Shown piece by piece: positions 2,426 to 40,610 of a stretch of DNA of 64,000 nt. The first letter of the stretch is position 1. Each line of letters opens with the position of its first letter. This stretch comes from Acidobacteriaceae bacterium (GTDB lineage Bacteria; Acidobacteriota; Terriglobia; Bryobacterales; Bryobacteraceae), in the NCBI GenBank assembly GCA_019240475.1, contig JAFAYI010000008.1, positions 12,980 to 76,979 of the forward strand. The letters run 5' to 3'. The notes under the pieces were generated by a model. The model was given only the letters and a program-made list of their open reading frames with translations, made no database searches and was not told where the DNA came from. The translations under genes were made by a program, and so were the position numbers.

Positions 2426-4786
2426 ATTCCCCCCTACGTCACTCCCGGTATCTATCAGGCAGCCATACCGCCTGCGCCAGACATTCGTTTGGTGAGGACC
2501 GACATTGCCGGATTCTTCGGCTTTGCCGAGCGCGGGCCGCTGCCCGACCGGGATGAGACGGATCCCGGCAAGCGGACTCAGGCAGCTGTAAAAATAACTT
2601 CCTGGAACGACTTTCGGTTGAAGTTTGGAGGATTTCTTCCTTATAGCTATCTCGCTTATGCCGTGCGGGGATTCTTCGCCACAGGAGGCAAGGAGTGCTA
2701 TGTCGTCCGCGTCGGGGCGGCGGCAAAGAAGCCGGCTACGGCCGTGCTGCCGTTGCCCGCGGCGATCACGTCTAGAACTTTGGCGAATCTTGCGGTGAAC
2801 TCCAGCGCCGGTGATACCCAGATCGCTTTCGATGCGGATGTAGACTTGGCGCCCGGTGCTTGTATCGTGGTCGGCGACCCTTCGCTTAACCCGCAACTGT
2901 CAGTCGCGAGCGTGATCGACCAACGCACTATCACTGTGCAACCCGCGCTTGGAACCACGTATTCTGCCGGCGACCCGGTATTCGCTCTTTCAGGGCCGGC
3001 AGTCGCCGCGCCGGTGACTTCAGTGGCGGCCGCAACCACCGTGGGCCAGACTCGAATTCAGCTCGATTGTTCGCAGGTTCTTGGAATACAGGCAGGATGC
3101 CTGGTTGCGCTCGGCGATCCGATCAATGGTGAATGCGTGTCCGTCGCCAGCGTGGTCGACGATCAGTTCATTACAGTCCAGCCGGCGCTTCAGTCGCTCC
3201 ATCCTGTCGGCGAACCTGTGTATCCGGTCTCCGGGTCCGCGCTTACATCCTCCGTTGCCGCGGGAGCGTCCAATTTGCAGGTCAGCAATGGCGCGTTTCA
3301 ACCGGACGACCTAGTTAGTGTTGAGGGCAACGGCATTCGCGAAATTCGTGTCGTTACAAGCACTCCATCGACCTCCAGCATACAGCTCGGGAGGGCGCTG
3401 CAATTCGGCTACGACGTTGGCGCGCTTGTACGCAAATACGAGACCGCGTTGACTGCAACAGCATTGAGTCCAGGAGAGTGGGGAAACCACATCAAGCTCC
3501 AGATCGTAGCCCTCGATCCTGGCGACGCGGTGACGCACTTCTCGCTGAGGGTCACAGTCGATCAAGGCGCAGATCCCACGCAGCCTATGCAACAGGAGTT
3601 CTATCCGCTCCTGTCGCTCGATCCAAACGACCCGTCTCCGAGCGACATTTACGCGCCCTGCGTTGTTCAGAACATGTCGGCTCTGATCCAACTCGAGTTG
3701 GCCGGCGCCCCCTTCGACTGCAAAGCGTCACCCCGAGTCACGCCGCCTCAAACCTTCCTCCTCTCGGGCGTGGGACCGCTTGCGACCTACGATCTTTATC
3801 TCGAAGGCGGTTCGGATGGCGGTCTACCGGCGCAATCTTACGCGGAGCCTCCAGATGCCGAGACCCAGGATTTTCAGGACGCGCTGGACGTGCTCGGACT
3901 GGTCGATGAAATCGCAATCCTGTGCTGTCCCGACGCCGCCGGTCCTCTGCCGCCGATAAACACGAACCATCGCTGGTCAATGAGCGCGATCCAACAAGCC
4001 ATGGTTGACCAGTGCGTAAACCTGCAATATCGCGTGGCCGTGTTGGATACGCCGATGTCGCTCACGCCCAACGCGACGATGCCACTACAACCGGCTCAGG
4101 CTGTGAGTTGGTTGAAGCAGCAGGCCCACCCGCAGCCGGCAACGCGTTTTGCCGCAGTCTACTATCCCTGGCTCAGCGTGCCGGACGAACTGGGTGTCGA
4201 GGGCCCGAATCGGCGCGTTCCGCCATGCGGGCACGTGGCGGGCGCATACGCTTTCACTGACAACAACTTTGGGGTTCAGAAGCCTCCGGCTAACGTCGAA
4301 CTGCATTTCGTGTCGGATGTGGAGCTCGCCGTAACCGACCAGCAGCAAGGATTTCTGAATCAGCAAGGCATCAACGCCATCCGGCCTATCCCCGGGCGCG
4401 GCATTCGTATCTGGGGAGCACGTTCCATTTCGACGGACTCCGATTGGATCTACATTCATACCCGCAGGCTTATGTCGATGATTGAGGACTCGGTCGAGAA
4501 GGCCAGCCGCTGGGTCGTGTTCCAGAACAACGACGACGACCTGCGCCGGATGCTGACTCATTCGCTCAACGTTTTTCTCGAATCCATTCGGCTCACGGGC
4601 GGGCTGAAAGGACTTCGTGCGGCCGACAGCTACTTCGTCAAATGCGATAGCACGAACAATCCGCCGGCCACCATCGATGCCGGGCAATTGGTCTGCCAGG
4701 TAGGGGTCGCCATTGCAGCTCCCATGGAATTCCTGGTTTTTGACATTCGGCGGTCGGTGGCAGGAGCGCAGGTTGTGGAGGCGTAA
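2426..4786 (+). CDS. tail sheath protein, paralogue 2 (long form with central insertion); probable non-canonical ATT start
   Basis: The track ORF starts at TTG 2489, but the frame is open from 2408. The upstream codons encode PPYVTPGIYQ, which aligns position-for-position with MPEYLYPGVYVE of sheath 1. ATT 2426 lies 8 nt after GGAG (2414-2417). The C-terminal GINAIRPIPGRGIRIWGARS..WIYIHTRRLMSMIEDSV matches the sheath C-domain. Confidence 0.8.
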   Translation: MPPYVTPGIYQAAIPPAPDIRLVRTDIAGFFGFAERGPLPDRDETDPGKRTQAAVKITSWNDFRLKFGGFLPYSYLAYAVRGFFATGGKECYVVRVGAAAKKPATAVLPLPAAITSRTLANLAVNSSAGDTQIAFDADVDLAPGACIVVGDPSLNPQLSVASVIDQRTITVQPALGTTYSAGDPVFALSGPAVAAPVTSVAAATTVGQTRIQLDCSQVLGIQAGCLVALGDPINGECVSVASVVDDQFITVQPALQSLHPVGEPVYPVSGSALTSSVAAGASNLQVSNGAFQPDDLVSVEGNGIREIRVVTSTPSTSSIQLGRALQFGYDVGALVRKYETALTATALSPGEWGNHIKLQIVALDPGDAVTHFSLRVTVDQGADPTQPMQQEFYPLLSLDPNDPSPSDIYAPCVVQNMSALIQLELAGAPFDCKASPRVTPPQTFLLSGVGPLATYDLYLEGGSDGGLPAQSYAEPPDAETQDFQDALDVLGLVDEIAILCCPDAAGPLPPINTNHRWSMSAIQQAMVDQCVNLQYRVAVLDTPMSLTPNATMPLQPAQAVSWLKQQAHPQPATRFAAVYYPWLSVPDELGVEGPNRRVPPCGHVAGAYAFTDNNFGVQKPPANVELHFVSDVELAVTDQQQGFLNQQGINAIRPIPGRGIRIWGARSISTDSDWIYIHTRRLMSMIEDSVEKASRWVVFQNNDDDLRRMLTHSLNVFLESIRLTGGLKGLRAADSYFVKCDSTNNPPATIDAGQLVCQVGVAIAAPMEFLVFDIRRSVAGAQVVEA

Positions 4787-9196: not shown

Positions 9197-11241
9197 TGCC
9201 GCTTCCCCAGGTTCAGCTCGACAATCGAAGCTATTCAGATCTGGTAACGGAGCTGCGGCGGCGCATTCCGGCGTACACCCCGGAGTGGACCGATTTCAAT
9301 GAGAGCGATCCGGGAATCGCTCTCATTGAGTTGTTCTCCTGGCTTGCGGATATCCTCATCTACCGCATTAACCAGATTCCTGATCGCGCCTATGTGAAGT
9401 TTCTCGAGATGATCGGCATCACGCTGGATCTTCCATCGGCGGCTCAAGCGTACCTGACATTCACGCTTACGTCGAAAGATCTACCGAGTCCGGTTAACGT
9501 TCCGGGCGGAACCACAGTTGGCCTGTCGAATGCCTCGGCGAGTCCGGTCATATTTGAAACGACCGAAGATCTTTGGGTAACTGGCGCGGCGCTTGCGGCA
9601 GTTCAGACCTATGATGGCGCGCGGTATTCGGTCGTGAATAACTTCAATCCAACCGATGGCAGCTCTTACTATCCGTTCAGCCAAACCCCACAGGCCGACG
9701 CCGCACTGTACATGGGATTCGACAGGCCGTTTCCGGCCGCAGCAGGCGTCCAGTATCCGTTGATTTTTCTCGTCCAGACACCGTCGGTGAACGGCGCGGC
9801 GCAGGGCGGAACCGCCGCACAGAGCAGTTCGCAGCCGATTGTCGGCGTTCTCGAGTATTCGACCGCGAGCGGGTGGGCGCCGTTCGCCGGTGTGCAGGAT
9901 ACGACCAACTCACTTACCAACAGTGGAGCGATTTTGTTTCAAGGAGCGTCCGATTGGGTTGCCACTCAATACGGAGCGTTCCGGAAGAGCAGCGATCCCT
10001 CGTACTACTGGATGCGTTACCGCATCGGTCAGTTGGTCGGCCCCGGCTACCAATCGCCGCCGCAACTCACGAATCTTCTGGTGAACACGGTCCAGGCGCT
10101 CAACGCTGTCACCGAAGAGGGCGAAGTGATCGGTGGCAGCAATGGGCTTCCGAATCAGAGCTTCATAATAAGCCACGCGCCGGTGCTTCCCAACGATCCT
10201 GGGGTCACAGGCATCGTAGAAGTGGACGAAGGCGACGGCAACGGTCCAACGCTGTGGGCTGAAGTTCCCGATTTCTCCGGTTCGGGACCAAACGACAAAG
10301 TCTACACGCTCGACCACTCGAGCGGAACGATCACATTCGGCGACGGGGTGCATGGAAAGATACCACGCTGGCTGTCGTCTGACGGTTCCAATCTGGAGAG
10401 TTCCGACACGCCGAACATTCAGGTGACAAGCTACAAATGGGGCGGCGGATCGGCTGGGAACGCAGGATCGAACAGTATTACTTCGCTGATTGATACTGTG
10501 CCGTTCATTGCCAGCGTCACGAACATCCTGCCGGCTCAACTCGGAGCCGACGAGGAAACTGTGGCAGACGCGCAAGAGCGCGCCCCAGAAGCCATTCGCA
10601 CCTTATCGCGCGCAGTCACACCCGAAGATTTCATCGCCCTGGCAAGACGAACACCGGGAGCTCGTATTCAGAGGGCCACCGCTATTCCGCTGCAAAGGCC
10701 GCAGACGCAGGTGGTTCGCGCTCCGGATGGGACCGTCATCACGCCTCCGTTGGCGCCCGGCGTTATCACCGTGATTGTTGTGCCGGATGGTCCGAACCCA
10801 GCAAGGCCGGTCGCGAACGATCAAACTTTGGCGGCGGTTGCGGCCTACCTGGACGGATATCGCCTTATCACCACCGAACTGTATGTCACCACGCCGGTAT
10901 ACCGCCTGGTTGAGGTACACGCCACGGTAACCGCTACTCCCGGCGCTCTCTCAACCGACGTTCAGGCAGCCGTGCAAAACGCATTGCTCGCCTTTTACAA
11001 CCCGCTCACAGGCGGCCAGCAGAGCGCCGGTCTACAGGGCTCAGGTTGGGATTTCGGCGGCACCATCTATGTCTCCGACGCGTATCAGCAGATTTTGCAA
11101 ATCGATAGCGTAGACCGCGTTGAAGGGCCGATCCGGATCTACGTTGATAACCAACTCCAAGCTCAGGATCAAGACATTCCGTTACAGCCCTTTGAGCTAG
11201 TGTATTCGACGAATCACGTCATAAGTGTGAGCTATTCGTAA
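9196..11241 (+). CDS. baseplate J/gp6-like protein (Afp11-like)
   Basis: TGATG junction; 681 aa. YSDLVTELRRRIPAYTPEWTDFNESDPGIALIELFSWLADILIYRIN is typical of baseplate J family N-termini. Confidence 0.85.
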   Translation: MPLPQVQLDNRSYSDLVTELRRRIPAYTPEWTDFNESDPGIALIELFSWLADILIYRINQIPDRAYVKFLEMIGITLDLPSAAQAYLTFTLTSKDLPSPVNVPGGTTVGLSNASASPVIFETTEDLWVTGAALAAVQTYDGARYSVVNNFNPTDGSSYYPFSQTPQADAALYMGFDRPFPAAAGVQYPLIFLVQTPSVNGAAQGGTAAQSSSQPIVGVLEYSTASGWAPFAGVQDTTNSLTNSGAILFQGASDWVATQYGAFRKSSDPSYYWMRYRIGQLVGPGYQSPPQLTNLLVNTVQALNAVTEEGEVIGGSNGLPNQSFIISHAPVLPNDPGVTGIVEVDEGDGNGPTLWAEVPDFSGSGPNDKVYTLDHSSGTITFGDGVHGKIPRWLSSDGSNLESSDTPNIQVTSYKWGGGSAGNAGSNSITSLIDTVPFIASVTNILPAQLGADEETVADAQERAPEAIRTLSRAVTPEDFIALARRTPGARIQRATAIPLQRPQTQVVRAPDGTVITPPLAPGVITVIVVPDGPNPARPVANDQTLAAVAAYLDGYRLITTELYVTTPVYRLVEVHATVTATPGALSTDVQAAVQNALLAFYNPLTGGQQSAGLQGSGWDFGGTIYVSDAYQQILQIDSVDRVEGPIRIYVDNQLQAQDQDIPLQPFELVYSTNHVISVSYS

Positions 11242-13331
11242 TGACTCCCGCGCGCGGCAATTATTTTCTCCTCAACTCGCTCTTCGAAGCGCAATGGCCG
11301 ATCGCTACACAAACGGGTGTTTACATCACGCCGGATGCAGGCGAGATTACTTTAGACCCGCTGCCGGGTAGCGCCAGAGTCCTGGATGCATCGGCAGTAG
11401 GTGCAGTGACGTGCCCGTTGGCCCTAGCCGCCGATTCCCAAGGCCGCTTTTTTGTACTCGACGGTGCAAACAATCGGCTCACAGTGTTGAGCCTAGCCAC
11501 CTCGCGAGCAATGCACATCGCGGCGTTCGGCGGGAAAGGCATTGGGCTACGCCAGTTCAAGAGCCCACAATCGGTAGCAGTCCTACCGTCCGGCGGGATT
11601 GCCGTTGCGGACACGGGCAACCAGAGGGTGCAGCTTTTCTCGGCCACTCCCTACGTTCTGCTGAGAGTCTGGGGCCCGCCCGACTTGGCCGTGCAACCCA
11701 ATGCAGTTGCGAGCGACAGTTCCGGAATCGTTTACATTGGCGACGGCAAGAGCGGATCTGTTCTGCGAGTCTGCACGAGCGGTGAATGGTTGGCGCCAAT
11801 CGGCGCCGGCATCCTGACGAACCCGGTCGCGTTGGCGGTTTCACCCGATAAAACCCTCGCGGTGATCGACAGCAAGAGCGGGAAAACATCGCTCGTGATT
11901 TTTCCTGGGACGGGCGGCAAGCCGGTACACCTCTCAACCGTCGCCGCCCCTTGCAGTCTCACATTTGACGACACCGGCAATCTCTACGCGGGAACCGCTA
12001 ATGCGATCGTTGCGAAATTGCAGGCGGATTCTACACAGCTCAGCGGCTGGTCGCTCGCAGGAGAAGGCGTCAGCGACGTAGATGGGCGGATCTCACAAAT
12101 CGTCTGGGTTAAGGGATCGGGCCTGATTGGAATCCTGAGTAACACCGTCCCCAAGACTGCGCCGCGCCTGTTTTCTATGGCTCCTGCCGGAGCCTACCGG
12201 CTGGCCGGCACGCTCGTCCTTAATAGCCTGGACAGCAGGATCGAGAACTGCTCGTGGCACAGAGTGCGTGTTCTGGGGAAAATTCCCGTGGGCGCAAGCG
12301 TGACGGTTGCCAGTTCTACGAGCGCCGACAACACGCATTGGACACCCTCAATCACCGGTGCTCTCCTGTCCGGCGACAACCCGGATTGCCTCATACAAAG
12401 CCCTCCGGGCCAGTACCTTCAGCTCACCGTCAATCTGCAGTCGAATGGCTCGGTCACGCCCTGTATCGACGCGCTTGAAGTCCACTTCCCGCGCACGAGC
12501 TATCTCCAATATCTACCGGCCGTGTTTCAGGAAGACGATCAGAGCCGGTTGTTCCTGGATCGCTTTCTTTCGATTTTCCAGACCACGTTCGACGGGATAG
12601 ACAGTTCCCTCGACAATCTCCAGGATGTTTTTGATCCGCTCATGACGCCGGCCAACGTCTTTCCGTGGCTTGCAGCCTGGGTTGCTCTTCCCATTGATCC
12701 GACCATGACGCTCGACCGGCAGCGGAAGTTGCTCAAGGGCGCATTCCAGGCCTATTTAAAACGGGGAACCGTCGCCGGATTACAGCAGATTATTCAGGAT
12801 TACACCGGCATCGATCAGATCCGCATTCTCGAGCATTACAGAGTTCGGAATTGGCTCACTCTGCAGGACTCATCCAGCCCTCTCGCTCAAGGCGCCCGTT
12901 TGTGGAGCGCCAAATTCTACTCGCGGTTAAGATTGGGCGTCACATCCAAGGTGGGATCGTTTCGCCTCACAAATTCGCCGCCTCCCTCTGCCGAGCCTTT
13001 CGATTGGGGAGCGAACCAGTTCAGCGTATTCTTCCCAGCGAGCCCTTACACCGCGGCTTCTACATCGTTGGCAATACAGAAGGTCCTCGATCGCGAGAAG
13101 CCGGCGCATACACAAGCCTTTCTGTCGCCGGTGTTTCCACGTCTTCGGCTGGGCGTGCAATCCACGCTCGGTGTCGACGCGTATGTGGGCAAGGTCAATC
13201 CGATGATTCTCGGTAAGCTGTCGACTTTAAATTACGACGCCGTATTGGCACGCTCGCAAAGCCAGCGCGACATGCAAGCCCTGGGACTCAGCCCGTTTCC
13301 GCGGCTCGGTAAGAACGCAACAATTCTGTGA
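11241..13331 (+). CDS. P2 gpI/Afp12-like baseplate protein with N-terminal NHL-repeat beta-propeller
   Basis: TAATG junction. NHL-like repeats are present (GRFFVLDGANNRLTVL; GIAVADTGNQRVQLF; GIVYIGDGKSGSVLRV; TLAVIDSKSGKTSLVIF). They are followed by the tail-protein-I domain (YLQYLPAVFQEDD..LDRFLSIFQ..FPWLAAWVALPID..LLKGAFQAYLKRGTVAGLQ). Confidence 0.8.
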   Translation: MTPARGNYFLLNSLFEAQWPIATQTGVYITPDAGEITLDPLPGSARVLDASAVGAVTCPLALAADSQGRFFVLDGANNRLTVLSLATSRAMHIAAFGGKGIGLRQFKSPQSVAVLPSGGIAVADTGNQRVQLFSATPYVLLRVWGPPDLAVQPNAVASDSSGIVYIGDGKSGSVLRVCTSGEWLAPIGAGILTNPVALAVSPDKTLAVIDSKSGKTSLVIFPGTGGKPVHLSTVAAPCSLTFDDTGNLYAGTANAIVAKLQADSTQLSGWSLAGEGVSDVDGRISQIVWVKGSGLIGILSNTVPKTAPRLFSMAPAGAYRLAGTLVLNSLDSRIENCSWHRVRVLGKIPVGASVTVASSTSADNTHWTPSITGALLSGDNPDCLIQSPPGQYLQLTVNLQSNGSVTPCIDALEVHFPRTSYLQYLPAVFQEDDQSRLFLDRFLSIFQTTFDGIDSSLDNLQDVFDPLMTPANVFPWLAAWVALPIDPTMTLDRQRKLLKGAFQAYLKRGTVAGLQQIIQDYTGIDQIRILEHYRVRNWLTLQDSSSPLAQGARLWSAKFYSRLRLGVTSKVGSFRLTNSPPPSAEPFDWGANQFSVFFPASPYTAASTSLAIQKVLDREKPAHTQAFLSPVFPRLRLGVQSTLGVDAYVGKVNPMILGKLSTLNYDAVLARSQSQRDMQALGLSPFPRLGKNATIL

Positions 13332-14680
13332 AAGAAAAATCCATGCCATCAAGCAATCGAAACACTTCCGGCAACCCGACATCCGCTGCGGCATCCGCGA
13401 GCGTGGCTGTAAGCGTGGACAGCGGCGCTTGTGAGATCCCGGCGTTTTGCCGCAGCAATTTCTATACGGGCAAACTGCTGACCGAGTGCGACCTGACGCG
13501 TGAACAGCGCTACCTGATCGATAAGCTGCGCCTCCACTATGTAGCCCTGCACGGCTGGGGAGTCGCATGCGGCTTGATGGTTAAGCCGCACCCCCAGTAT
13601 GCGGATCGCTTGGTTGTCACTCCGGGATTCGCCGTTGACGATTGCGGCCGGGAGATTCGGCTTCTTAAAGAATGCGTCGTACTGTTTCCCAAGCCCCCGC
13701 AGTCCTTGCCCGACCCTTGCGAGCCGGAGTTCGAGGATGAGGCCTGCGACGAATCCGGAACGGGCATAGAGATCGAACCTGAGAGACACAACTACTACGT
13801 TTGCATTCGCTACACCGAGTGCCGAGAAGACTTCATGCCGGTTGTGTTCTCCGATTGTTGCAACACCTCGAAACAGCCTAACCGCATCTCGGAGTGCGCT
13901 GTGATCGACATCCTTACGGATCCTCCGGAATGCCTGGGCGAGATCCAGCGTCATAAGCAGAGGCCCCGTGAGGAGAACTGTCACGCCTTGCTGGAGCACA
14001 CTTCTCAGAACTGCCCGCCTTCGGGTAAAGAGTGCTGCATCCCGCTCGCGCTGGTCCATGGCTACGTTTACGGCGATTCGCTTACCGAGCACATGATTGA
14101 CAACCGCGTGCGTCCCCACATGCCCAGCGTTCCTCACCTGGAAGCGCTGGTCCGCTGTGTGATGGAGCATCAACCGAAGCACGGGCCGCACCTGACGCGC
14201 ATCTCCCGCGTTCATTGGGAGCACGATCGCGAATACCGTCCTCGCGAATTCGTTCACGAGTTTGTTGGAACGCACGAAGCGCCACGGGGATTTCTGGTTG
14301 AATTCGATAAAGAAGTTCACGAGCAGGGGCTGAATCCCCGCACGTTTCAGGCGACCATCGTGCGCCATCCCTACGAGGGGCATGAAGCGAGACGGGTGGA
14401 AATCGCGCCGGCGCGGGTCACTCGCGGCGAAGACGGACGCCATTGCAGCTTGCACATAGATCCGGAATACGTTCGCCGCCATCTTCAGGAAGAAAACTTC
14501 GATGTGATCCTGACCTTGCAATGCGACAAGGTGATCGACGAAAACGGAATCCCGGTAGACGGCAACCTTCTTGCCGGAGTCCGCGAGTACGACAAGCAAT
14601 ATATGCTCCGGTTCCCGACGGGAAACGGCACGCCGGGAGGCCTGTTTGAAAGTTGGATTCGAGTCAGGCGTGAGAGATAA
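13328..14680 (+). CDS. Cys-rich CIS-associated protein, paralogue A (tail-fibre/Afp13 position), function unknown
   Basis: GTG 13328 overlaps the gpI stop (GTGA); the alternative ATG is at 13343. About 20 Cys by eye. The N-terminal module NFYTGKLLTECDLTREQRYL..HGWGVACGL..VTPGFAVDDCGREI is shared with the next two genes. Confidence 0.6.
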   Translation: MKEKSMPSSNRNTSGNPTSAAASASVAVSVDSGACEIPAFCRSNFYTGKLLTECDLTREQRYLIDKLRLHYVALHGWGVACGLMVKPHPQYADRLVVTPGFAVDDCGREIRLLKECVVLFPKPPQSLPDPCEPEFEDEACDESGTGIEIEPERHNYYVCIRYTECREDFMPVVFSDCCNTSKQPNRISECAVIDILTDPPECLGEIQRHKQRPREENCHALLEHTSQNCPPSGKECCIPLALVHGYVYGDSLTEHMIDNRVRPHMPSVPHLEALVRCVMEHQPKHGPHLTRISRVHWEHDREYRPREFVHEFVGTHEAPRGFLVEFDKEVHEQGLNPRTFQATIVRHPYEGHEARRVEIAPARVTRGEDGRHCSLHIDPEYVRRHLQEENFDVILTLQCDKVIDENGIPVDGNLLAGVREYDKQYMLRFPTGNGTPGGLFESWIRVRRER

Positions 14681-24321: not shown

Positions 24322-27300
24322 ATGAGTGCGTCCGCTGAGCCAGTTTCAATCGCAAAAGAAACCACCTCCCGAACTCCGGAAGGGGGCGCCCCCGCGCCTC
24401 AATCGACTGTCGCAGGAATCCAAGGCGATCACACGGTGGACCGGTTCTTTGGTGCGGACGCGCTGTCTGTTCCCCGCCTAAAAGCGCCTGTGTTGCAGCG
24501 CGCACAACGCTTGTACGGAAACCAGGCGTCAGGACAAATCGTCATGCGTGCGCGGGCACTTCAACGTCACTGCGCATGCGGAGGAACATGCGCGAAGTGT
24601 CAAGCCGCCGTGCCTGATACGCAAGGAGAACCGTTACAGCTTAGCTCCCGCCGCCCTCTCGAGAATCATTTCCAAACCGATCTCGCCGCCGTCCGCATTC
24701 ACACCGGCGACGAAGCAGCGGAGTCCGCACGAAACCTCGACGCGCTTGCCTACACCAGCGGCCGCGATATTTATTTCGCTCACGGGATGTATGCGCCCTC
24801 CAGCACAAGCGGTCAGCGATTGCTCGCGCACGAAGTGGCGCACGTGGTGCAGCAGAGTTCGGGCAAAGAGCCGAGCATCGCCACGAAATCGGCGCGCGGC
24901 GCGAAGATCGGCGCGCAGGAGGACCCGCTCGAGTCCGAAGCGGAGCGTAGAGCTGAGGAGTTCACTTCGCACCCGCAAACCGCTCTCACCGACGAAGAGG
25001 AACGCAAGAAGCTCTCGACGATCCCAGGGCATCCTCCCATTCAGAGGCAACCAGATCCCGCTCAACCCTTCTCCGAACCGGCGGCCGAGTGGCCCGCAAC
25101 CGAAAGCGCCGCCGACCTCGTCTGCAAAGGAATCGAAGATGACAGCATCGATGAAGTCGTCGCGCCGATGCGCGGCTTGTCCATCGCTGGTCTCGCTTCC
25201 GTGCGAACCGCTGTTCTGTTTCGAAAGACAACACTCCTCGAACACTGGCTGTTGCAGCGGCACGGTGGAAGTACGCTCGGCGCCATCGTTTCCGCCATAG
25301 CTGTGGGGACCACCTTCGGCACTCGTCCGAAGATTACAGCCACAGCGGAAGAAGGCATGCGGCTTCTCTGGCCGGCGCTGCCGCTAATCGATCGTCTCGA
25401 AGTGTACGACGAAGGATATCGCGAAATTGAGCAGGCCCAACTCGACGTCATTCGTGAATCCAGCCTGAAAGAGCGCGCCGAAGCTCTGCAGAAGCCAGAC
25501 CGGCTGCTCGCCATCTACAAAAACATGAGCGCCAAGGAGGAGTTCGAGGCGCGTAATCTGATGGATTCCAGCGAGGTGGCAAAAGGCGACACCGCGGTTC
25601 GAATGATCCAGAGAGGCGACGACAAAGACGTCGTTTATGACGCTCTCATCGCCCTTGATCGAATCGATCGCAAGTTCGTTTGGGACCAACACTACGACGA
25701 GCTTTATCATCTCCTCGATAGTTCCGAGTTCAAGCTGGTATCCACGCTTACTCATGGCTCGGAAGCGCAGATTATCATCGCCCGGCTACGTCTTGCGACG
25801 GAAGATCGCAAGGACGACATGGAAGCGGTCCACGCCACGGTGGATCGCGCCGTGCAGTTGCTTGCCGAACGCCGGCAACTCCGCGAGGCCCGCTCTGCCA
25901 AGTTGCTGACTGCCGACGACCGCGCCGAAATCGATCAGCGATTGCAAGAATTGGGCGAGCTTGATGAGCTCGTGAAGTTCAGGCGCACCGTTGAGGGCGA
26001 CCTGAAGAAGAACACCTTCATGGAACTGCTGGCGGGGGCCGAGGATCAACAGGCTGCTTTCGGTTCCGACATGGACCGGCTCCTGCAGTTTGCGCCTAAC
26101 GGCAGAGACTTCGCGCTAGAAGCCGCAAAGCAGCGCGTTCTAATCGCCGGTGGCAACGAGGATCAGCTAAGAAGTATTCTGCTCACCACGCACGCGCCTC
26201 AGGAGGCGGGCGACAAGAACAAACGGACTGAGTTGAAGCAATGGGAAGAGGACGTTGAATTCCGAAAAGAGCTCCTGAGCGATCCCCAGGTGAGAGAAGT
26301 CTTCGACGGACTCACTCCCGCCACGCGAATGCACGTCCTCTCCGCGCTCAAAGGCGACGCCTTTGACGACGCGCTGGAGCATCTGAACCAATTGAAGAAC
26401 TCCGCGCAATGGGGCGAGTTCTTTGCGCTCGTCCGCACGGTGGCTCTCAACCCCGATTGGCGGGAGCGTTTCATCGCGACTCGCACGCAGTATTGGAGTC
26501 TTTATGCATTCGTCTCGGGCGAAGAGCGCGAAATCATGGAGAAGATTCTCTATGACCCCGAGCACAAAGTGCCCATCATCGCGCTTTTGCGGTACACGGG
26601 CAGCGTATCTACGCTCAAGGCTGCCTTCGCAAACCTTCAGGAGAGCGACCGCGAACAGCTTCGTACCGGTTGGGCGATGGCCAACCATCCCTTCATTGGC
26701 CCGCGCTCGGAGCAGCAGGACACGGCCCTCACGGCGTTCCGGACTTTCGAACAGGAGCTTCTAAAGTCTCAGGGTTCCGATCACGAAGGCTACGAAACGA
26801 TTCTCACCACCGTTCTCGGAACCGCCCCCACTAAATCCGAGATCGCCACAGGCGAAGGCCGCTACAATGCCGCCGCGATTCTTGCCGAGCGTGTCGAAAA
26901 GCGCCTGGGGCTTGAGCGCGGCATTTCCGCGGAGTTCACTGAGACCGACGAAACCATGGACGCCGCCGGACGCCAATTCGCTGCGCTATGGCTTCGTCTG
27001 AAGGGTCAGGCCGAGCTCTCCATCGTCGACTACGCCACGCTCCTGACCCTGTACCAACAGTTCGATAAGCGTGCTGAGGAATTCGGCGAAGCTTCTAAAG
27101 CTATCACGGATGTTGCAGGCACCATCGCGGCGACACTTGCTGGAATCATTGTCGTAGTCGCGACCGGCGGGGCGGCCACACCCGCCGTTGTTGCCATGGC
27201 CGCCGCGGCGGGTGCGGCGGGTGGGTTCGTTGCACGCGAGGCCTTTGGGGGCGACTACTACACGGCTATGAGTAGCGAAGGCGGCCGTGCGCTGTTGCTC

Positions 27301-28836
27301 GATTCCATAAACGGCGCGCTTGCAGTTTTGAGCGGCAGCCTTGCCGCCCGCGGCGTTGAACTTATCGGCCTCAGTGGCGATGCGCTCGCGCAAGGCATGG
27401 CGCGCGTCGGTGAAGGCGCTGTTCAGGAGGCGGCGCAGTCTCTCGGCCGCAAGGCTGTTGTCGCCGGAGTCGAAGCCGCGTTAGACGGGATGATCTCTGG
27501 AAGCATCAGCGAGGCCGCCGCGACCTTCACAGACGATCGCACGTGGCGCGAAGGAATCATGGAAGGCCTCTCGCGCGTCGGCAAGGCAGCGCTTCTCGGC
27601 GGTCTGTTCGGGATGGCTGGCGGAGCCGTCCTTGGATCCGCCATGCCGGTAGTCGGTCGCGTTGCCGGCAGGGCATGGAAGGCGGTGACCGCCGGCACAT
27701 TGGAGAAGACTCTCATTCGTGCAGGCATGGAAGACGTGCTTAAGGCAGCGGAGGCGGCCGCCAGGAGCGGGGACTCGCACGCCCTGGAAATGATGATGAC
27801 GCAAATGGAGGCGAACCTCAGCACCGAAGATGCCGCCCTCTTGCGCAAACAGCTCGGCAAAAAACTGGAGGAAGCGCTAGGGCATCCGCCAGGACGTGCA
27901 GACCTCATGCGCGACCAGGAAAAGCTGCTCGCCGCAAGCGGAAACAAAGAATCCGACCTGACAAAAGATGAGCTTGACGCCGAGCTTGACGTTGTCGCTC
28001 GCAGCGAGCCGCAGATCAGCAACGAACCCGGATACGTCGATGAGGTCGACCTCGGCTATGGACATACGTGGCGGCGCACCGAAGAAGGCACGTGGTGCCG
28101 CTTCACGAGGAAGTCCCTCTGCGGCACCAAGATCCCCGGCGCCCGCAAGATGTCGCGAGGCGCCCTGAATCGGGCAAGGCTCCTCAGTGACAAGGATATT
28201 AATGAGTGGACCAAGAACCTCGACAAACTTGCCGCTGAGGGCGGTGGGGCCGCCGCTGAAGCAGCGAGCCAGACTGCTACCGTCACCTACAACCTGCAGG
28301 ATGCCATTGATGCCGCACTTGTGGATATGAAGGGCAAGTGGGCCGGCAATATGGCCGAGAAGGGCACTCGCTTGCATGCTGCGCTTGCCCGGCGCATTCA
28401 GGAGATGGGCCTGAAGCTGCCCTCGACCATTGATGTCCAGGTTGAACAGCAGCTTAAGAACGTCTTCAACATACCCAAAAACGTTCAGAAGAAAACCGTT
28501 CGTGAGTGGCTGCAATTCGAAGGCAAGGGAGGCGGACGCGCGCACGATTGGTTAGTTCCATATCTGGATAGACGCGTACTCGATACTGCTGTCGGCGAGT
28601 TGAAACTCGACGCGGTCTTTCGCGTCGAGGGACAGACGATCATTTTCGATTTGACCAGTAGGGAAAGCGCCAGTCACCTCGCCAAATCCACACTTTACTC
28701 GCTGCTCGGCAGCGAGGAAAATCAACTGTCTCGCGTACAGGAATACTATTGGGCCCAGAGCTATGCACATGAGGCAGAAGAGAACGAAAGGGCTGCTGTC
28801 CGGCGAAGTTCAACGGCTTCAGCACCAGTAAAATAA
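24322..28836 (+). CDS. large DUF4157-domain protein, candidate eCIS payload 2 (1504 aa)
   Basis: It carries the same DUF4157 cassette as payload 1. This is followed by a long helical region, a Gly/Ala-rich hydrophobic block (about nt 27100-27690), and a distinct C-terminal domain of about 280 aa. Confidence 0.75.
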   Translation: MSASAEPVSIAKETTSRTPEGGAPAPQSTVAGIQGDHTVDRFFGADALSVPRLKAPVLQRAQRLYGNQASGQIVMRARALQRHCACGGTCAKCQAAVPDTQGEPLQLSSRRPLENHFQTDLAAVRIHTGDEAAESARNLDALAYTSGRDIYFAHGMYAPSSTSGQRLLAHEVAHVVQQSSGKEPSIATKSARGAKIGAQEDPLESEAERRAEEFTSHPQTALTDEEERKKLSTIPGHPPIQRQPDPAQPFSEPAAEWPATESAADLVCKGIEDDSIDEVVAPMRGLSIAGLASVRTAVLFRKTTLLEHWLLQRHGGSTLGAIVSAIAVGTTFGTRPKITATAEEGMRLLWPALPLIDRLEVYDEGYREIEQAQLDVIRESSLKERAEALQKPDRLLAIYKNMSAKEEFEARNLMDSSEVAKGDTAVRMIQRGDDKDVVYDALIALDRIDRKFVWDQHYDELYHLLDSSEFKLVSTLTHGSEAQIIIARLRLATEDRKDDMEAVHATVDRAVQLLAERRQLREARSAKLLTADDRAEIDQRLQELGELDELVKFRRTVEGDLKKNTFMELLAGAEDQQAAFGSDMDRLLQFAPNGRDFALEAAKQRVLIAGGNEDQLRSILLTTHAPQEAGDKNKRTELKQWEEDVEFRKELLSDPQVREVFDGLTPATRMHVLSALKGDAFDDALEHLNQLKNSAQWGEFFALVRTVALNPDWRERFIATRTQYWSLYAFVSGEEREIMEKILYDPEHKVPIIALLRYTGSVSTLKAAFANLQESDREQLRTGWAMANHPFIGPRSEQQDTALTAFRTFEQELLKSQGSDHEGYETILTTVLGTAPTKSEIATGEGRYNAAAILAERVEKRLGLERGISAEFTETDETMDAAGRQFAALWLRLKGQAELSIVDYATLLTLYQQFDKRAEEFGEASKAITDVAGTIAATLAGIIVVVATGGAATPAVVAMAAAAGAAGGFVAREAFGGDYYTAMSSEGGRALLLDSINGALAVLSGSLAARGVELIGLSGDALAQGMARVGEGAVQEAAQSLGRKAVVAGVEAALDGMISGSISEAAATFTDDRTWREGIMEGLSRVGKAALLGGLFGMAGGAVLGSAMPVVGRVAGRAWKAVTAGTLEKTLIRAGMEDVLKAAEAAARSGDSHALEMMMTQMEANLSTEDAALLRKQLGKKLEEALGHPPGRADLMRDQEKLLAASGNKESDLTKDELDAELDVVARSEPQISNEPGYVDEVDLGYGHTWRRTEEGTWCRFTRKSLCGTKIPGARKMSRGALNRARLLSDKDINEWTKNLDKLAAEGGGAAAEAASQTATVTYNLQDAIDAALVDMKGKWAGNMAEKGTRLHAALARRIQEMGLKLPSTIDVQVEQQLKNVFNIPKNVQKKTVREWLQFEGKGGGRAHDWLVPYLDRRVLDTAVGELKLDAVFRVEGQTIIFDLTSRESASHLAKSTLYSLLGSEENQLSRVQEYYWAQSYAHEAEENERAAVRRSSTASAPVK
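24433..24945 (+). repeat. copy 2 of the ~513-bp DUF4157 cassette direct repeat
   Basis: See 21967-22479. The repeat occupies the same reading-frame position in both genes, at aa 37/38 onward. Confidence 0.85.
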
Positions 28837-30828: not shown

Positions 30829-32169
30829 ATGGCTAACGCTACAGTTGCTTTGGTGGAAGAGGGATCGCATCTTGAGGATGCATTGCGTAAGCACCTGGAA
30901 TCAGCCGGGTTCGATGTGTTGTTGGCTTCTCACGACGCGCTGGACCGTGTGCTTCTTTCGCCTGCTCGCCTGTTCATAGTCGCGAACCGCTCCCCCGATA
31001 CCGCCTACGCCGTTTCTGTACTTCAGCGCCTTCACCGAGCGCGTTCGGTCGTTCCCGTCTTCCTCCTGGCTCGGGTGAGTTCAGAGCAGTTGGCCGTTGC
31101 CGCTCTTAAACAAGGGGTGGCCGATTACTTCGCTCCACCGATCGATTTGCATGACGTGATGACCGTGGTGCGTCGCGCCACCGCTTCCCGATTCGCTTTT
31201 GCGGACCGCGAGTTTAAAGTGGATAACCCGACGGGAGGCCGCGACATGATCGGCGAGAGCATCTCCATGCGCGAGCTTCGCACCTACGTCGGGAAAGTGG
31301 CGCAACGGGAATGTAACGCTCTTATCCTGGGTGAAACGGGAACGGGAAAAGACCTGGTGGCTGAGGCTATTCACTTCAACAGTCCGCGAAAAAGCAAGCC
31401 GTTCGTATCTGTAAACTGCGCTGCAATCCCCGATACGCTGCTCGAAAGCGAACTCTTCGGGTACGAAAAAGGCGCCTTCACTGGCGCGGACGGCTCCAGA
31501 GAAGGCAAAATTGGCCAGGCACAAGGCGGAACCCTCTTTTTAGATGAGATCGGCGATATGACACCCTATGCCCAAGCCAAAATCCTGCGCGTCATTGAAA
31601 GTAAGCAGATTCAACGGTTGGGAGGCAAAGCTTGCATTCCGGTAAATGTGAGAATTCTCGCCGCCACCAATCAAAATCTGCCGAAGCTGATTTCTGAACA
31701 GCGCTTTCGTAAAGACTTATACTTCCGGCTGAATGTTGCGCAAATCCCGCTGCCTTCGCTTCGCGACCGACGCGAGGATATTGGCGCGTTGCTGAACTAT
31801 TATGTGGGCGTATTCAATCACCAGAGCGGGTCACGTGTGGAAGGTTTTACAGCGCGCGCTCTGATGCGGCTCACCGAGTATGATTGGCCTGGCAACGTCC
31901 GAGAACTGCGAAGCATGGTTGAGTCCATTTTCATCGATCCGCCGTACCCCCGCATCGACGAGTGTCATCTGCCGCTGACCGGTTCGAACCTCCACCGCGC
32001 CGAAGTGGATGATCGGCAGCGCTTAATGGAGGCGCTCCGAATTACTCATTGGAATAAGAGTAAGGCGGCCGCAAGGCTGCGTTGGTCGCGCATGAAGGTC
32101 TACCGCAAGTTGGCTCAATATCGCATTGAACAACAAACCGAAAAAGCGATGTCAGCGAACGGCGGGTGA
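30829..32169 (+). CDS. sigma-54-dependent transcriptional activator (NtrC-family EBP) with degenerate receiver domain
   Basis: The AAA+ core has Walker A GETGTGKD, the GAFTGA loop (YEKGAFTGA) and LFLDEIGDM. The C-terminus is a Fis-type HTH ([21 protein letters not shown]). The N-terminal receiver-like domain lacks the canonical acidic pocket. Confidence 0.9.
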
Positions 32170-40344: not shown

Positions 40345-40397
40345 CAAACGCCCCATGTTTTACTCAATTAGTTATAACTGCCATTAGGAGATTTTCG

Positions 40398-40610
40398 ATG
40401 AATCCATATGAAATTAAATTACTGGCCAGGCATGCCGATGCTCTGGCACGTCATCCCGGTCTGGCACGCCACGCTGGTCTCGCCCGTCACCCCGGCTTAG
40501 CCCGCCATCCAGGCTTAGCTCGTCATTCGGGCCTTGCTCGCCATCCCGGTCCGGCCCGCCATCCCGGTGTCGTGGCCAGCACAGAGCAGTCAGGCAGCGG
40601 CACTGACTGA
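40398..40610 (+). CDS. 70-aa repeat peptide, candidate multi-core RiPP precursor (nine A-R-H-x-G units)
   Basis: AGGAG lies 7 nt upstream of the ATG. The sequence is MNPYEIKL-LARHADA-LARHPG-LARHAG-LARHPG-LARHPG-LARHSG-LARHPG-PARHPG-VVASTEQSGSGTD. The units differ mostly at synonymous third positions, so the peptide rather than the DNA is conserved. Confidence 0.7.
   Translation: MNPYEIKLLARHADALARHPGLARHAGLARHPGLARHPGLARHSGLARHPGPARHPGVVASTEQSGSGTD
40422..40568 (+). repeat. in-frame tandem repeat of an 18-nt (hexapeptide) unit, about 8 copies; the first unit is 21 nt
   Basis: Read directly: ctg gca cgt cat ccc ggt / ctg gca cgc cac gct ggt / ctc gcc cgt cac ccc ggc / tta gcc cgc cat cca ggc / tta gct cgt cat tcg ggc / ctt gct cgc cat ccc ggt / ccg gcc cgc cat ccc ggt. 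Confidence 0.9.
40587..40609 (+). other. stem-loop at the 3' end of the precursor ORF (7-bp stem CAGTCAG/CTGACTG, 9-nt loop)
   Basis: A perfect 7-bp inverted repeat spans the last codons and the stop codon. No U-tract follows, so it is not a canonical intrinsic terminator. It may be an RNA stability or processing element. Confidence 0.3.

Follow-up and report, generated by a model that had tools for sequence, protein, structure and literature searches.

Tandem Ala-Arg-His peptides encoded beside a TfxB/TfxC-related enzyme pair look like repeat-bearing relatives of the tiarins

The tiarins are reportedly a class defined only in a preprint of December 2025. They are trifolitoxin-like antibiotics, members of the peptides made by ribosomes and modified post-translationally (RiPPs), and the class-defining pair consists of TfxB (SagB-type) and TfxC (nitroreductase-type), both of which carry RiPP recognition elements (RREs) (Travin et al., bioRxiv 10.64898/2025.12.02.691738). 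In the core of the precursor a conserved Gln (A-L-X-Q motif) is turned into a fluorophore, and the residue preceding this Gln sets which aminoacyl-tRNA synthetase (aaRS) is targeted; trifolitoxin (R-Q) inhibits arginyl-tRNA synthetase (ArgRS) after uptake and aminopeptidase trimming, the unmodified N-terminal part acting as bait for peptide importers (bioRxiv 10.64898/2025.12.02.691738). Tiarin cores predicted to be directed at ArgRS read GARQGC, AARQGC and VARQGC (same preprint). In the present work we analyzed a stretch of 64,000 nucleotides from an Acidobacteriaceae bacterium (assembly GCA_019240475.1, contig JAFAYI010000008.1; hereafter the window), around a small open reading frame (ORF) of 70 residues that encodes tandem hexapeptides built on Ala-Arg-His (ARH). 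This ORF is a gene, read in the frame given in Table 1 and under purifying selection at the peptide level, and it is very probably a genuine, conserved RiPP precursor. Two genes just upstream encode a flavoprotein pair that is homologous, as judged from sequence comparison, to the TfxB/TfxC pair, and the family as a whole looks like a repeat-bearing and previously undescribed relative of the tiarins.

Translation of the ORF reproduces the peptide reported in a preliminary description of this DNA, which had counted nine ARH units with Gly in eight of them. There are in fact eight units, the number that its own bracketed list also contains, and Gly closes seven, the first unit being LARHAD-A. 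The ribosome-binding site that it had placed 7 nt upstream of the start codon is present, as are all the synonymous codon variants that it had listed, and the same 70-residue gene is called in the European Nucleotide Archive (ENA) assembly of the source organism. Tandem Repeats Finder delimits a repeat with a period of 18 nt, 7.1 copies and 74% nucleotide matches (40442–40568). All eight units are distinct as DNA but encode just five peptide variants, and the codon differences between them comprise 85 synonymous versus 31 non-synonymous changes. Over ten genes of the family, the variable columns of the repeat fall at codon positions 1, 2 and 3 in 14, 4 and 46 cases, respectively, out of 64 (binomial p = 3e-10). 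From their consensus, the window units differ by 28 substitutions; random placement of as many changes never preserved A-R-H in all units in 200,000 simulations. This result and the excess at third positions bear out the earlier claim of translation and purifying selection. Moreover, the repeat DNA diverges between loci and the encoded peptide is kept. Since further reading frames across the GC-rich repeat are also open in the window, the frame assignment rests on the codon-position signal, the conserved start and the leader. The precursor has no match in Pfam or NCBIfam, and no description of the ARH-repeat motif or of this combination of enzymes was found in the searchable literature, in agreement with the earlier placement of the motif outside the named precursor families.

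Ten distinct precursors, including that of the window, were recovered from assemblies of Acidobacteriota, Eremiobacterota and Myxococcota and from unbinned contigs. They have in common a leader M-x-x-Y-x-I-K/R-P followed by 4 to at least 12 copies of G-[L/I]-A-R-H-x, in which G-[L/I]-A-R-H is invariant and the sixth position is P, A, S, T, V or D; the precursors end in mutually unrelated tails. GGAG-type sites precede most orthologues at a similar distance, the exceptions being the two myxobacterial ones and that of locus L067. The preliminary description had proposed that the frame be checked in orthologues, and in syntenic loci of other phyla the frame, the leader and the repeats are all kept. 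Relatives of the window methyltransferase (50–57% identity) lie on contigs with the same gene set and a small ORF just 5' of the dioxygenase. Precursors identified in this way read MDDYTISPIRPQH...(LARHPG)x6-LAPAG in an Eremiobacterota metagenome-assembled genome (MAG), MDDYEIKPVQTHTIG(LARHA/PG)x9-LARQT in L007, MNEYEIKPLAGRIAG(L/IARHP/AG)x5... beside a further methyltransferase relative, and MKEYEIRPLAGRTAG(L/IARHxG)x6... in L004, the last being found also in a Bryobacteraceae MAG. At L004 the public gene call (3184–3330) is a 48-residue ORF in the wrong frame and the true precursor (3174–3395) is unannotated; the same applies to L005, L006 and L014. A degenerate pattern, (ARHxG[LIMF])2-ARH, was scanned over 185,579 species genomes and a metagenome collection, yielding 38 and 59 loci, respectively. 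Most of these are unrelated repeats that have neither leader nor cluster genes and were discarded, but the scans added L054, L092 and L067 plus two myxobacterial variants (Enhygromyxa and Nannocystaceae), in which a leader MDQY[ST]IKP... precedes (LARHDG)n, n being at least 12. In L015 (3900–4079) and L018 (4625–5020) the precursor genes are divergent from the flavoprotein pair, and the array of L018 is interrupted by an assembly gap (a run of N).

Among the loci returned without a leader, a Candidatus Velthaea (Eremiobacterota) MAG carries a GLARHPG-coding 18-nt repeat (L012, 7380–7600, minus strand, identical to L072) with no recognisable leader, no ATG and no cluster genes within 7.4 kb to one side; either a remnant or a cluster located farther out would account for this. 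The metagenome contigs L053, L062, L071 and L077 contain long 18-nt repeats encoding GIARHPG, GIAIHPG or GIAKHTG without leader or cluster genes, and appear to be a different family sharing the ARH reading by chance. None of the eight family peptides looked up by exact match is present in a collection of 15 billion proteins. A peptide search of a protein database of 5.8 billion clusters gave P0001 as its sole match, which we rejected as a spurious ORF within the repeat of a type III CRISPR locus (L001, 6751–7107, with Cas10 and RAMPs), unrelated to the precursor; the near-empty result is uninformative because the family peptides are absent from that collection. This absence, together with the call of one precursor in the wrong frame, indicates that mining at the protein level would miss the family.

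The most constant companions of the precursor are the SagB-type and the nitroreductase-type protein (SagB1 and SagB2), which had not been singled out in the preliminary description. The pair is encoded at seven of the ten precursors; one short contig shows SagB2 only, and two are without such a flank. In the myxobacterial loci neither a radical S-adenosylmethionine (rSAM) enzyme nor a dioxygenase nor PqqD was seen within 8 kb each, the precursor and the SagB1/SagB2 pair being the only genes of the window type. Thus, the common core of the family consists of precursor and pair. These loci encode in addition two ATP-grasp enzymes (Pre-ATP-grasp and GSH-S type) beside the precursor or the pair, to which L015 adds a JmjC/Cupin_8 protein, and the Asp of each LARHDG unit may be the handle for an ATP-grasp ligase. 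SagB1 of the window matches TIGR03605 with 85 bits, for a cut-off of 78.4, and also TIGR04511; its relatives in the Protein Data Bank (PDB) are 3eo7, ThcOx/CyaGox and McbC. It keeps YPSGGA and W-R-Y, the latter standing at the position of the Lys-Tyr pair of McbC and ThcOx, a pair known from the dehydrogenases of the thiazole/oxazole-modified microcins (TOMMs). SagB2 matches Pfam Nitroreductase with 37.5 bits (cut-off 23.5), and RRTCRNF is invariant among its orthologues. This orthogroup is rare, with 10 clusters at E <= 1e-30 among 1.84 billion representatives; a wider family comprises 414 at 1e-10.

The link to the tiarins comes from haloarchaea. Among plasmid sequences SagB1 is matched best by the SagB/ThcOx gene of Natrinema pallidum pNPA200 (39% identity, E 7e-36), and the Natrinema cluster is listed as a haloarchaeal tiarin cluster (bioRxiv 10.64898/2025.12.02.691738). 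Both proteins carry a linker motif, E..LM..YR....PP.I.KD, and MWRYRE, so that motifs outside the catalytic domain are included in the likeness. Between SagB2 and the TfxC homologue listed for Natrinema the identity is 27% (E 3e-11), and just 5' of the gene for the latter lies the precursor MTEYDIEEVDDEEAPALHQHHKVVESDD, whose start, MTEYDIEEV, is like the leaders of the ARH family. The designation of an undescribed RiPP type in the preliminary description therefore holds for the RiPP setting, with RRE/PqqD and tailoring enzymes, and has to be given up for an entirely undescribed type, the flavoprotein pair being homologous to TfxB/TfxC. The comparison is based on the Natrinema and Thermus clusters; a TfxA search against plasmids for the archetypal TfxB/TfxC gave no match. 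The closest plasmid genes to SagB1, on Natrinema pNPA200 (L111) and on plasmid pA of Priestia sp. J2 (L116), adjoin an MFS transporter gene and a Nik-type ABC importer operon, a hint that some proteins of this SagB subgroup have a role related to metals. The next-closest SagB2 relatives, at L113 (haloarchaeal to judge from its DUF families) and L114 (which has a small, strongly acidic ORF), also belong to nitroreductase-type pairs, but neither an ARH precursor nor a clear X-Q precursor was found near them.

The precursor gene lies mid-operon, as described earlier, with tailoring-enzyme genes in the same orientation on both sides and the PqqD gene two genes downstream (Table 1). Two general features of RiPP loci are found here, namely a short leader-plus-core gene beside modifying enzymes (the 70-residue ORF inside the operon) and an RRE in the cluster, represented by PqqD, above its Pfam cut-off, and by the RRE fold at the N-terminus of the methyltransferase. 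The SagB1/SagB2 genes (39313/39316) and the dioxygenase/PqqD genes (41770/41773) overlap by 4 nt, the stop codon of the methyltransferase overlaps the start of SagB1 as called in the ENA assembly, and the precursor gene is flanked by gaps of 54 and 57 nt. All cluster genes of the window were found in L002, L004, L007 and L009, except that MTS was unseen in L009 (tblastn). The cupin gene lies 5' of the methyltransferase gene in L002, L004, L009 and L110, whereas L007 has it at another place in the cluster, and some loci add a PanD-like decarboxylase; a MATE exporter is encoded near L002. Between Acidobacteriota-like and Eremiobacterota loci the rSAM fusion is 76–86% identical, the other cluster proteins 38–73%. 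No YcaO gene was found in the window or in any family locus examined; the marks of TOMMs or linear azol(in)e-containing peptides, YcaO and a core rich in Cys, Ser and Thr, are thus missing, the invariant residues being G, L/I, A, R and H.

Table 1. Features of the window at and around the ARH-repeat gene
Feature	Position	Strand	Basis and remarks
Precursor peptide gene (very probable), 70 aa	40398-40610	+	Translation MNPYEIKLLARHADALARHPGLARHAGLARHPGLARHPGLARHSGLARHPGPARHPGVVASTEQSGSGTD, then stop
Leader MNPYEIKL	40398-40421	+	Part of precursor gene
Eight tandem [L/P]-A-R-H-x-G units	40422-40568	+	Residues 9-57 of precursor
Follower VVASTEQSGSGTD plus stop	40569-40610	+	Tail of precursor gene, non-conserved
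Shine-Dalgarno AGGAG	40386-40390	+	7 nt 5' of precursor ATG; read from sequence
Small cupin (Cupin_2), about 100 aa	36647-36958	+	Pfam Cupin_2, E 1.7e-9; first gene of rightward operon
PRMT-fold SAM methyltransferase with N-terminal RRE-like domain, 401 aa	37026-38231	+	Pfam PrmA + PRMT_C
SagB1, SagB-type flavoprotein (TfxB-like), 362 aa	38228-39316	+	TIGR03605
SagB2, nitroreductase-fold protein (TfxC-like), about 342-343 aa	39313-40344	+	Pfam Nitroreductase
Fe(II)/2-oxoglutarate dioxygenase, gamma-butyrobetaine hydroxylase/TmpA type, 368 aa	40667-41773	+	Pfam TauD + GBBH-like_N
PqqD-family RRE, 143 aa	41770-42201	+	Pfam PqqD, 37.3 bits (cut-off 23.4)
HemK/PrmC-like (MTS) methyltransferase, about 211 aa	35763-36398	-	Pfam MTS, NCBIfam PrmC-related, below cut-off
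GCS2/YbdK-like carboxylate-amine ligase, about 307 aa	34843-35766	-	Pfam GCS2; limits from ENA gene call
Ferredoxin (2Fe-2S)-rSAM-SPASM-HamA-like (DUF3050, haem-oxygenase-fold oxygenase) fusion, 840 aa	32293-34815	-	Pfam
Sigma-54-dependent response regulator	30829-32169	+	Pfam and NCBIfam; adjoins cluster

The response regulator that adjoins the cluster is not kept beside it in L002, L004, L007 and L009; a -24/-12 sigma-54 consensus is absent from the intergenic regions of the cluster, where a scan for promoters and terminators remained at background level. Further to the left the window contains an extracellular contractile injection system (393–28836) with two tail-sheath genes, baseplate J, a P2-I/Gp48-like gene with NHL repeats, an AAA ATPase with winged helix and eCIS_core (DUF4157); in its 1504-residue ORF (24322–28836) a metallopeptidase-like motif of the HEVAHVVQQ type was recognised by eye. 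Directly beside the ARH cluster of L009, a class II lanthipeptide synthetase (LanM; DUF4135 + LANC_like) is encoded together with a 69-residue ORF (10289–13537), probably a separate cluster.

The operon methyltransferase can be aligned with CARM1 and PRMT7 across motif I and the double-E loop, and it has the Rossmann S-adenosylmethionine (SAM) motif, the double-E loop and the beta-barrel of the protein arginine methyltransferases (PRMTs), with E198 and E207 conserved at 90% or more across 57 members of the family. The top 50 PDB matches of its AlphaFold2 model (predicted local distance difference test, pLDDT, of 89) are all PRMTs, the target TM-scores of the top matches being 0.7–0.83, two-domain PRMT7 entries excepted. 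When residues 1–95 were modelled alone (pLDDT 86), RRE domains of RiPP enzymes made up 11 of the first 14 matches, and the RRE-like matches were ThcOx, PbtF, TbiB1, McbB, TruD and PqqD. The modelled RRE fold suggests that the enzyme is built to bind a leader peptide and not a free amino acid. A broader relative, P0012, lies outside any gene cluster, so that the wider methyltransferase family is not uniformly linked to RiPPs.

Over its entire length, N-terminal domain included, this methyltransferase also shares 37% identity with the gene at the TvaG position of an Actinomadura thioamitide cluster. TvaG is a putative His bis-N-methyltransferase (installation of beta-hydroxy-N1,N3-dimethylhistidinium in thioamitides), and it is paired with TvaJ, a 2-oxoglutarate (2OG) hydroxylase acting on His. 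The pairing of a methyltransferase with a 2OG hydroxylase is thus common to both systems; the window cluster differs in having no YcaO, TfuA, AviCys or other thioamitide genes and a hydroxylase of the GBBH family instead of PhyH. Furthermore, the two Glu residues of the double-E loop are replaced by D and M in the thioamitide homologue, whereas the window enzyme keeps both Glu, and from this difference Arg would be favoured as its target, His being possible. The Actinomadura locus itself (sp. 6K520, GCA_004349245.1; L109, 4120–15725) is a complete-looking thioamitide cluster, with a precursor ending in ...AVTIGVHC and genes for APH, HopA1, a flavoprotein, the PRMT-like methyltransferase, YcaO, TfuA, PhyH, a C1 peptidase, SDR, P450 and JmjC; the N-terminal domain of its methyltransferase corresponds to the RRE-fold domain of the window enzyme.

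The dioxygenase has TmpA and human BBOX1 as best PDB matches and keeps H-T-D, the distal His, the Arg and the N-terminal Cys motif; against NCBIfam models it reaches 237, 219 and 161 bits, short of the respective cut-offs of 400, 415 and 268. In the aromatic cage that in such hydroxylases serves a trimethylammonium group, an invariant Glu stands at the position of Tyr194 of BBOX1 and an Ala at that of Trp181, and such a Glu cage would suit guanidinium or methylguanidinium better than quaternary ammonium. Dioxygenase and PqqD are fused in L007, which indicates that the PqqD RRE serves the dioxygenase, and they are adjacent in the other loci; PqqD gives weak matches to lasso-type PqqD models. 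The C-terminal domain of the rSAM fusion matches PDB 9vwb (DUF3050; E 3.9e-58) and is a close homologue of HamA, the mono-iron, 2OG-binding oxygenase of the fragin pathway, which is encoded beside the cupin HamB in the ham operon and whose role is debated.

On balance, we regard it as fairly probable that the ORF encodes a RiPP precursor whose repeats are modified by the TfxB/TfxC-related pair plus accessory enzymes. The precursor would be organised as a very short leader, tandem hexapeptide cores and a dispensable tail. Its leader (Y-x-I-K-P) would be bound by the RREs of PqqD, of the methyltransferase and, probably, of the flavoprotein pair, and the enzymes so recruited would act on successive repeats. 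The class-defining oxidation would be carried out at each A-R-H by an FMN heterodimer of SagB1 and SagB2, at a site corresponding to A-R-Q-G of tiarins. In clusters of the window type the repeats would be N-methylated by the PRMT-fold enzyme, with Arg the likelier and His a possible target, and hydroxylated by the PqqD-assisted butyrobetaine-hydroxylase-like dioxygenase; a second module comprising the rSAM-SPASM-HamA fusion, the cupin, the GCS2 ligase and the MTS methyltransferase would probably process them further, after which the array may stay whole or be trimmed into units. In this scheme we infer the modified residues, the order of steps, the fate of the array, the final product and its biological activity, as distinct from the gene, the selection, the synteny, the folds and the homology of the pair set out above. 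A tentative and in sum rather doubtful extension sees the precursor as a polyvalent pro-drug, in which the pair makes a tiarin-like warhead at each A-R-H, with His for Gln, so that uptake and trimming would release 4 to at least 12 ArgRS-directed units, decorated by RRE-guided guanidine methylation (PRMT), by butyrobetaine-hydroxylase-type hydroxylation and by HamA-type N-oxygenation. Should that extension be true, these decorations would be chemistry not yet seen on ribosomal peptides.

A number of observations weigh against the proposed kinship with tiarins and the pathway built on it. The tiarin-defining Gln is absent from the repeat units of all orthologues except the last unit of L007 (LARQT), His standing in its place, and ARH repeats occur in none of the 79 listed tiarin precursors. 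Neither a GNAT nor an aaRS gene, the usual immunity genes of tiarins, was found near the cluster in the window, L002, L004, L007, L009 and L110. SagB1 scores 85 bits against a tiarin TfxB-like gene of Thermus and 84 bits against a SagB/ThcOx gene of Bacillus pseudomycoides, which is taken to be of TOMM type; in view of these similar scores, the tentative placement in the tiarin clade rests mainly on the haloarchaeal relatives. The N-terminal 90 residues of SagB1 align in register with the RRE profile of the methyltransferase, though weakly (hhalign E 0.004, probability 8%). The RRE-PRMT, the GBBH-like dioxygenase with PqqD and the rSAM-HamA fusion set the cluster apart, TauD, PqqD, rSAM, PRMT and cupin being absent from the accessible part of the supplements to the preprint. 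Finally, the target residue of the methyltransferase is uncertain because its thioamitide homologue is thought to methylate His.

Other readings of the locus put the weight on different genes or residues. That the array is sacrificial, its repeats being modified and then excised as many copies of a small molecule derived from Arg-His (a cofactor, signal or metal-binder), as with PQQ, mycofactocin and thiovarsolins, seems unlikely to us. Such a role would suit the tandem identical units with a variable spacer residue, present in 4 to at least 12 copies and placing His at every sixth position, the rSAM-HamA fusion, whose unusual conservation across phyla is more typical of cofactor pathways, and the MFS and Nik-type ABC transporter genes adjoining the plasmid SagB1-like genes; a precedent exists in thiovarsolin biosynthesis, with its repeating precursor, haem-oxygenase-like Arg side-chain desaturase and ATP-grasp ligase (PMC6511847). 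The cluster, however, has no conserved protease, an S58 peptidase lying near L007 only, and no conserved transporter, and no cleavage motif is evident between the units. We give less weight again, judging it quite improbable, to a pathway in which the rSAM/SPASM enzyme and PqqD make one cross-link or radical modification per repeat and the flavoproteins are accessory. PqqD is the classical partner of rSAM-SPASM maturases (PqqD/PqqE, MftB/MftC), and an rSAM-SPASM gene stands in the divergent operon of every locus of the Acidobacteriota or Eremiobacterota type, its product being the most conserved protein of the cluster; repeat precursors are reportedly common in rSAM RiPPs (PMC9062424). Against this, leader, ARH repeats and flavoprotein pair persist in the myxobacterial loci with rSAM, PqqD and dioxygenase all unseen in 8 kb, PqqD is fused in L007 to the dioxygenase and not to the rSAM enzyme, and the latter has NirJ/AhbD-like proteins as best matches and comes near the cut-off of no peptide-maturase model (HxsC 32.7 versus 267.9 bits). 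For these reasons the rSAM/SPASM repeat systems, named in the preliminary description as the nearest analogues, no longer appear to be so.

The array could also be read as an extended leader or uptake bait, with the true site a single tiarin-type X-Gln just after it. A Gln does follow the last repeat closely in six of ten precursors (TEQS in the window, SNQD in L004, TSQL in L009, SSQT in L092, LARQT in L007 and ARDQ in L067), and tiarins use their unmodified N-terminal part as importer bait, but the other four (L002, L054, L015 and L018) have no such Gln, its occurrence is not significant given that the tails are unconserved and that by their length most would hold a Gln by chance, L007 excepted, and strong purifying selection on A-R-H in every unit is unexpected for a spacer; we hold this reading to be very unlikely. 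Hardly credible, lastly, is the view that slippage of an 18-nt DNA repeat left the frame open by chance, with no function for the peptide. It could appeal to the other open frames across the repeat, to the gene caller that picked the wrong frame in L004 and to the ARH-type 18-nt repeats found elsewhere without leader or cluster (L012, L053, L071, L077), yet it leaves unaccounted for the concentration of substitutions at third codon positions and the conservation across phyla of start, ribosome-binding site and leader motif, as well as of the position in the cluster. We therefore retain the modification of the repeats by the flavoprotein pair and its accessory enzymes as the preferred reading.

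If the family is related to the tiarins, its repeated cores, which retain the preceding Arg but have His in place of Gln, would test what a TfxB/TfxC pair needs as a substrate, would bear on the structure of the tiarin fluorophore, and would bring Acidobacteriota, Eremiobacterota and Myxococcota from soil into the class. Tandem six-residue cores would moreover be a convenient substrate, giving a mass ladder repeat by repeat within one peptide. The cluster also presents new architectures of tailoring enzymes, namely a PRMT with a built-in RRE, a hydroxylase of the carnitine-pathway type coupled or fused to PqqD, and a ferredoxin-rSAM-SPASM-HamA fusion.

Comparison with other known systems places the locus more closely. 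Pathways that form N-N bonds (streptozotocin, SznE/SznF; fragin, HamA/HamB) resemble the window cluster in its PRMT-fold methyltransferase, HamA homologue and small cupin, but their substrates are free or carrier-bound amino acids and not ribosomal peptides. An N-nitrosation of the SznE/SznF kind was considered and rejected, SznF being absent among the PDB matches of the HamA-like domain and of the cupin, so that the analogy is a loose one. With the rSAM/SPASM repeat RiPPs (His-Xaa-Ser, three-residue cyclophanes, poly-cyclopropylglycine) the window-type cluster has in common short tandem cores, an rSAM-SPASM enzyme and a PqqD-type RRE, whereas the ARH unit reads H-x-G and contains no His-x-Ser or aromatic-x-x motif. 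The thiovarsolin system (VarA, VarY, VarT, VarO) is similar in its repeating precursor with one Arg per core and in an ATP-dependent ligase of the cluster, and VarO, linked to Arg side-chain desaturation, has a haem-oxygenase fold, by which alone it is likened to the HamA-like domain; it differs in its thioamidation by YcaO/TfuA, absent from ARH clusters, and in having no flavoprotein pair (PMC6511847).

With the tiarins, finally, the agreement concerns the plan of the locus, with SagB-type and nitroreductase-type genes beside a short precursor with a strong ribosome-binding site, no obligatory YcaO, and variable accessory methyltransferases and oxygenases, a MATE exporter being found near L002. 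It extends to the leader start, M-x-[ED]-Y-[ED]-I being common to the ARH family and three haloarchaeal precursors (MT/SEYDIEEV), and to the core, where A-R-H-x-G compares with the ArgRS-type A-R-Q-G-C and the last unit of L007 is LARQT. On the other hand, the leader of the ARH family is much shorter than most tiarin leaders, its hexapeptide cores number 4 to at least 12 where tiarins have a single core or, in a few cases, two long leader-plus-core copies, and its host phyla are absent from the precursor list of the preprint, save for one Cystobacter entry for Myxococcota. The precursor family and its accessory set are absent from Pfam, NCBIfam and the searchable literature; the central pair of enzymes and the logic of the biosynthesis are those of a class described only very lately.

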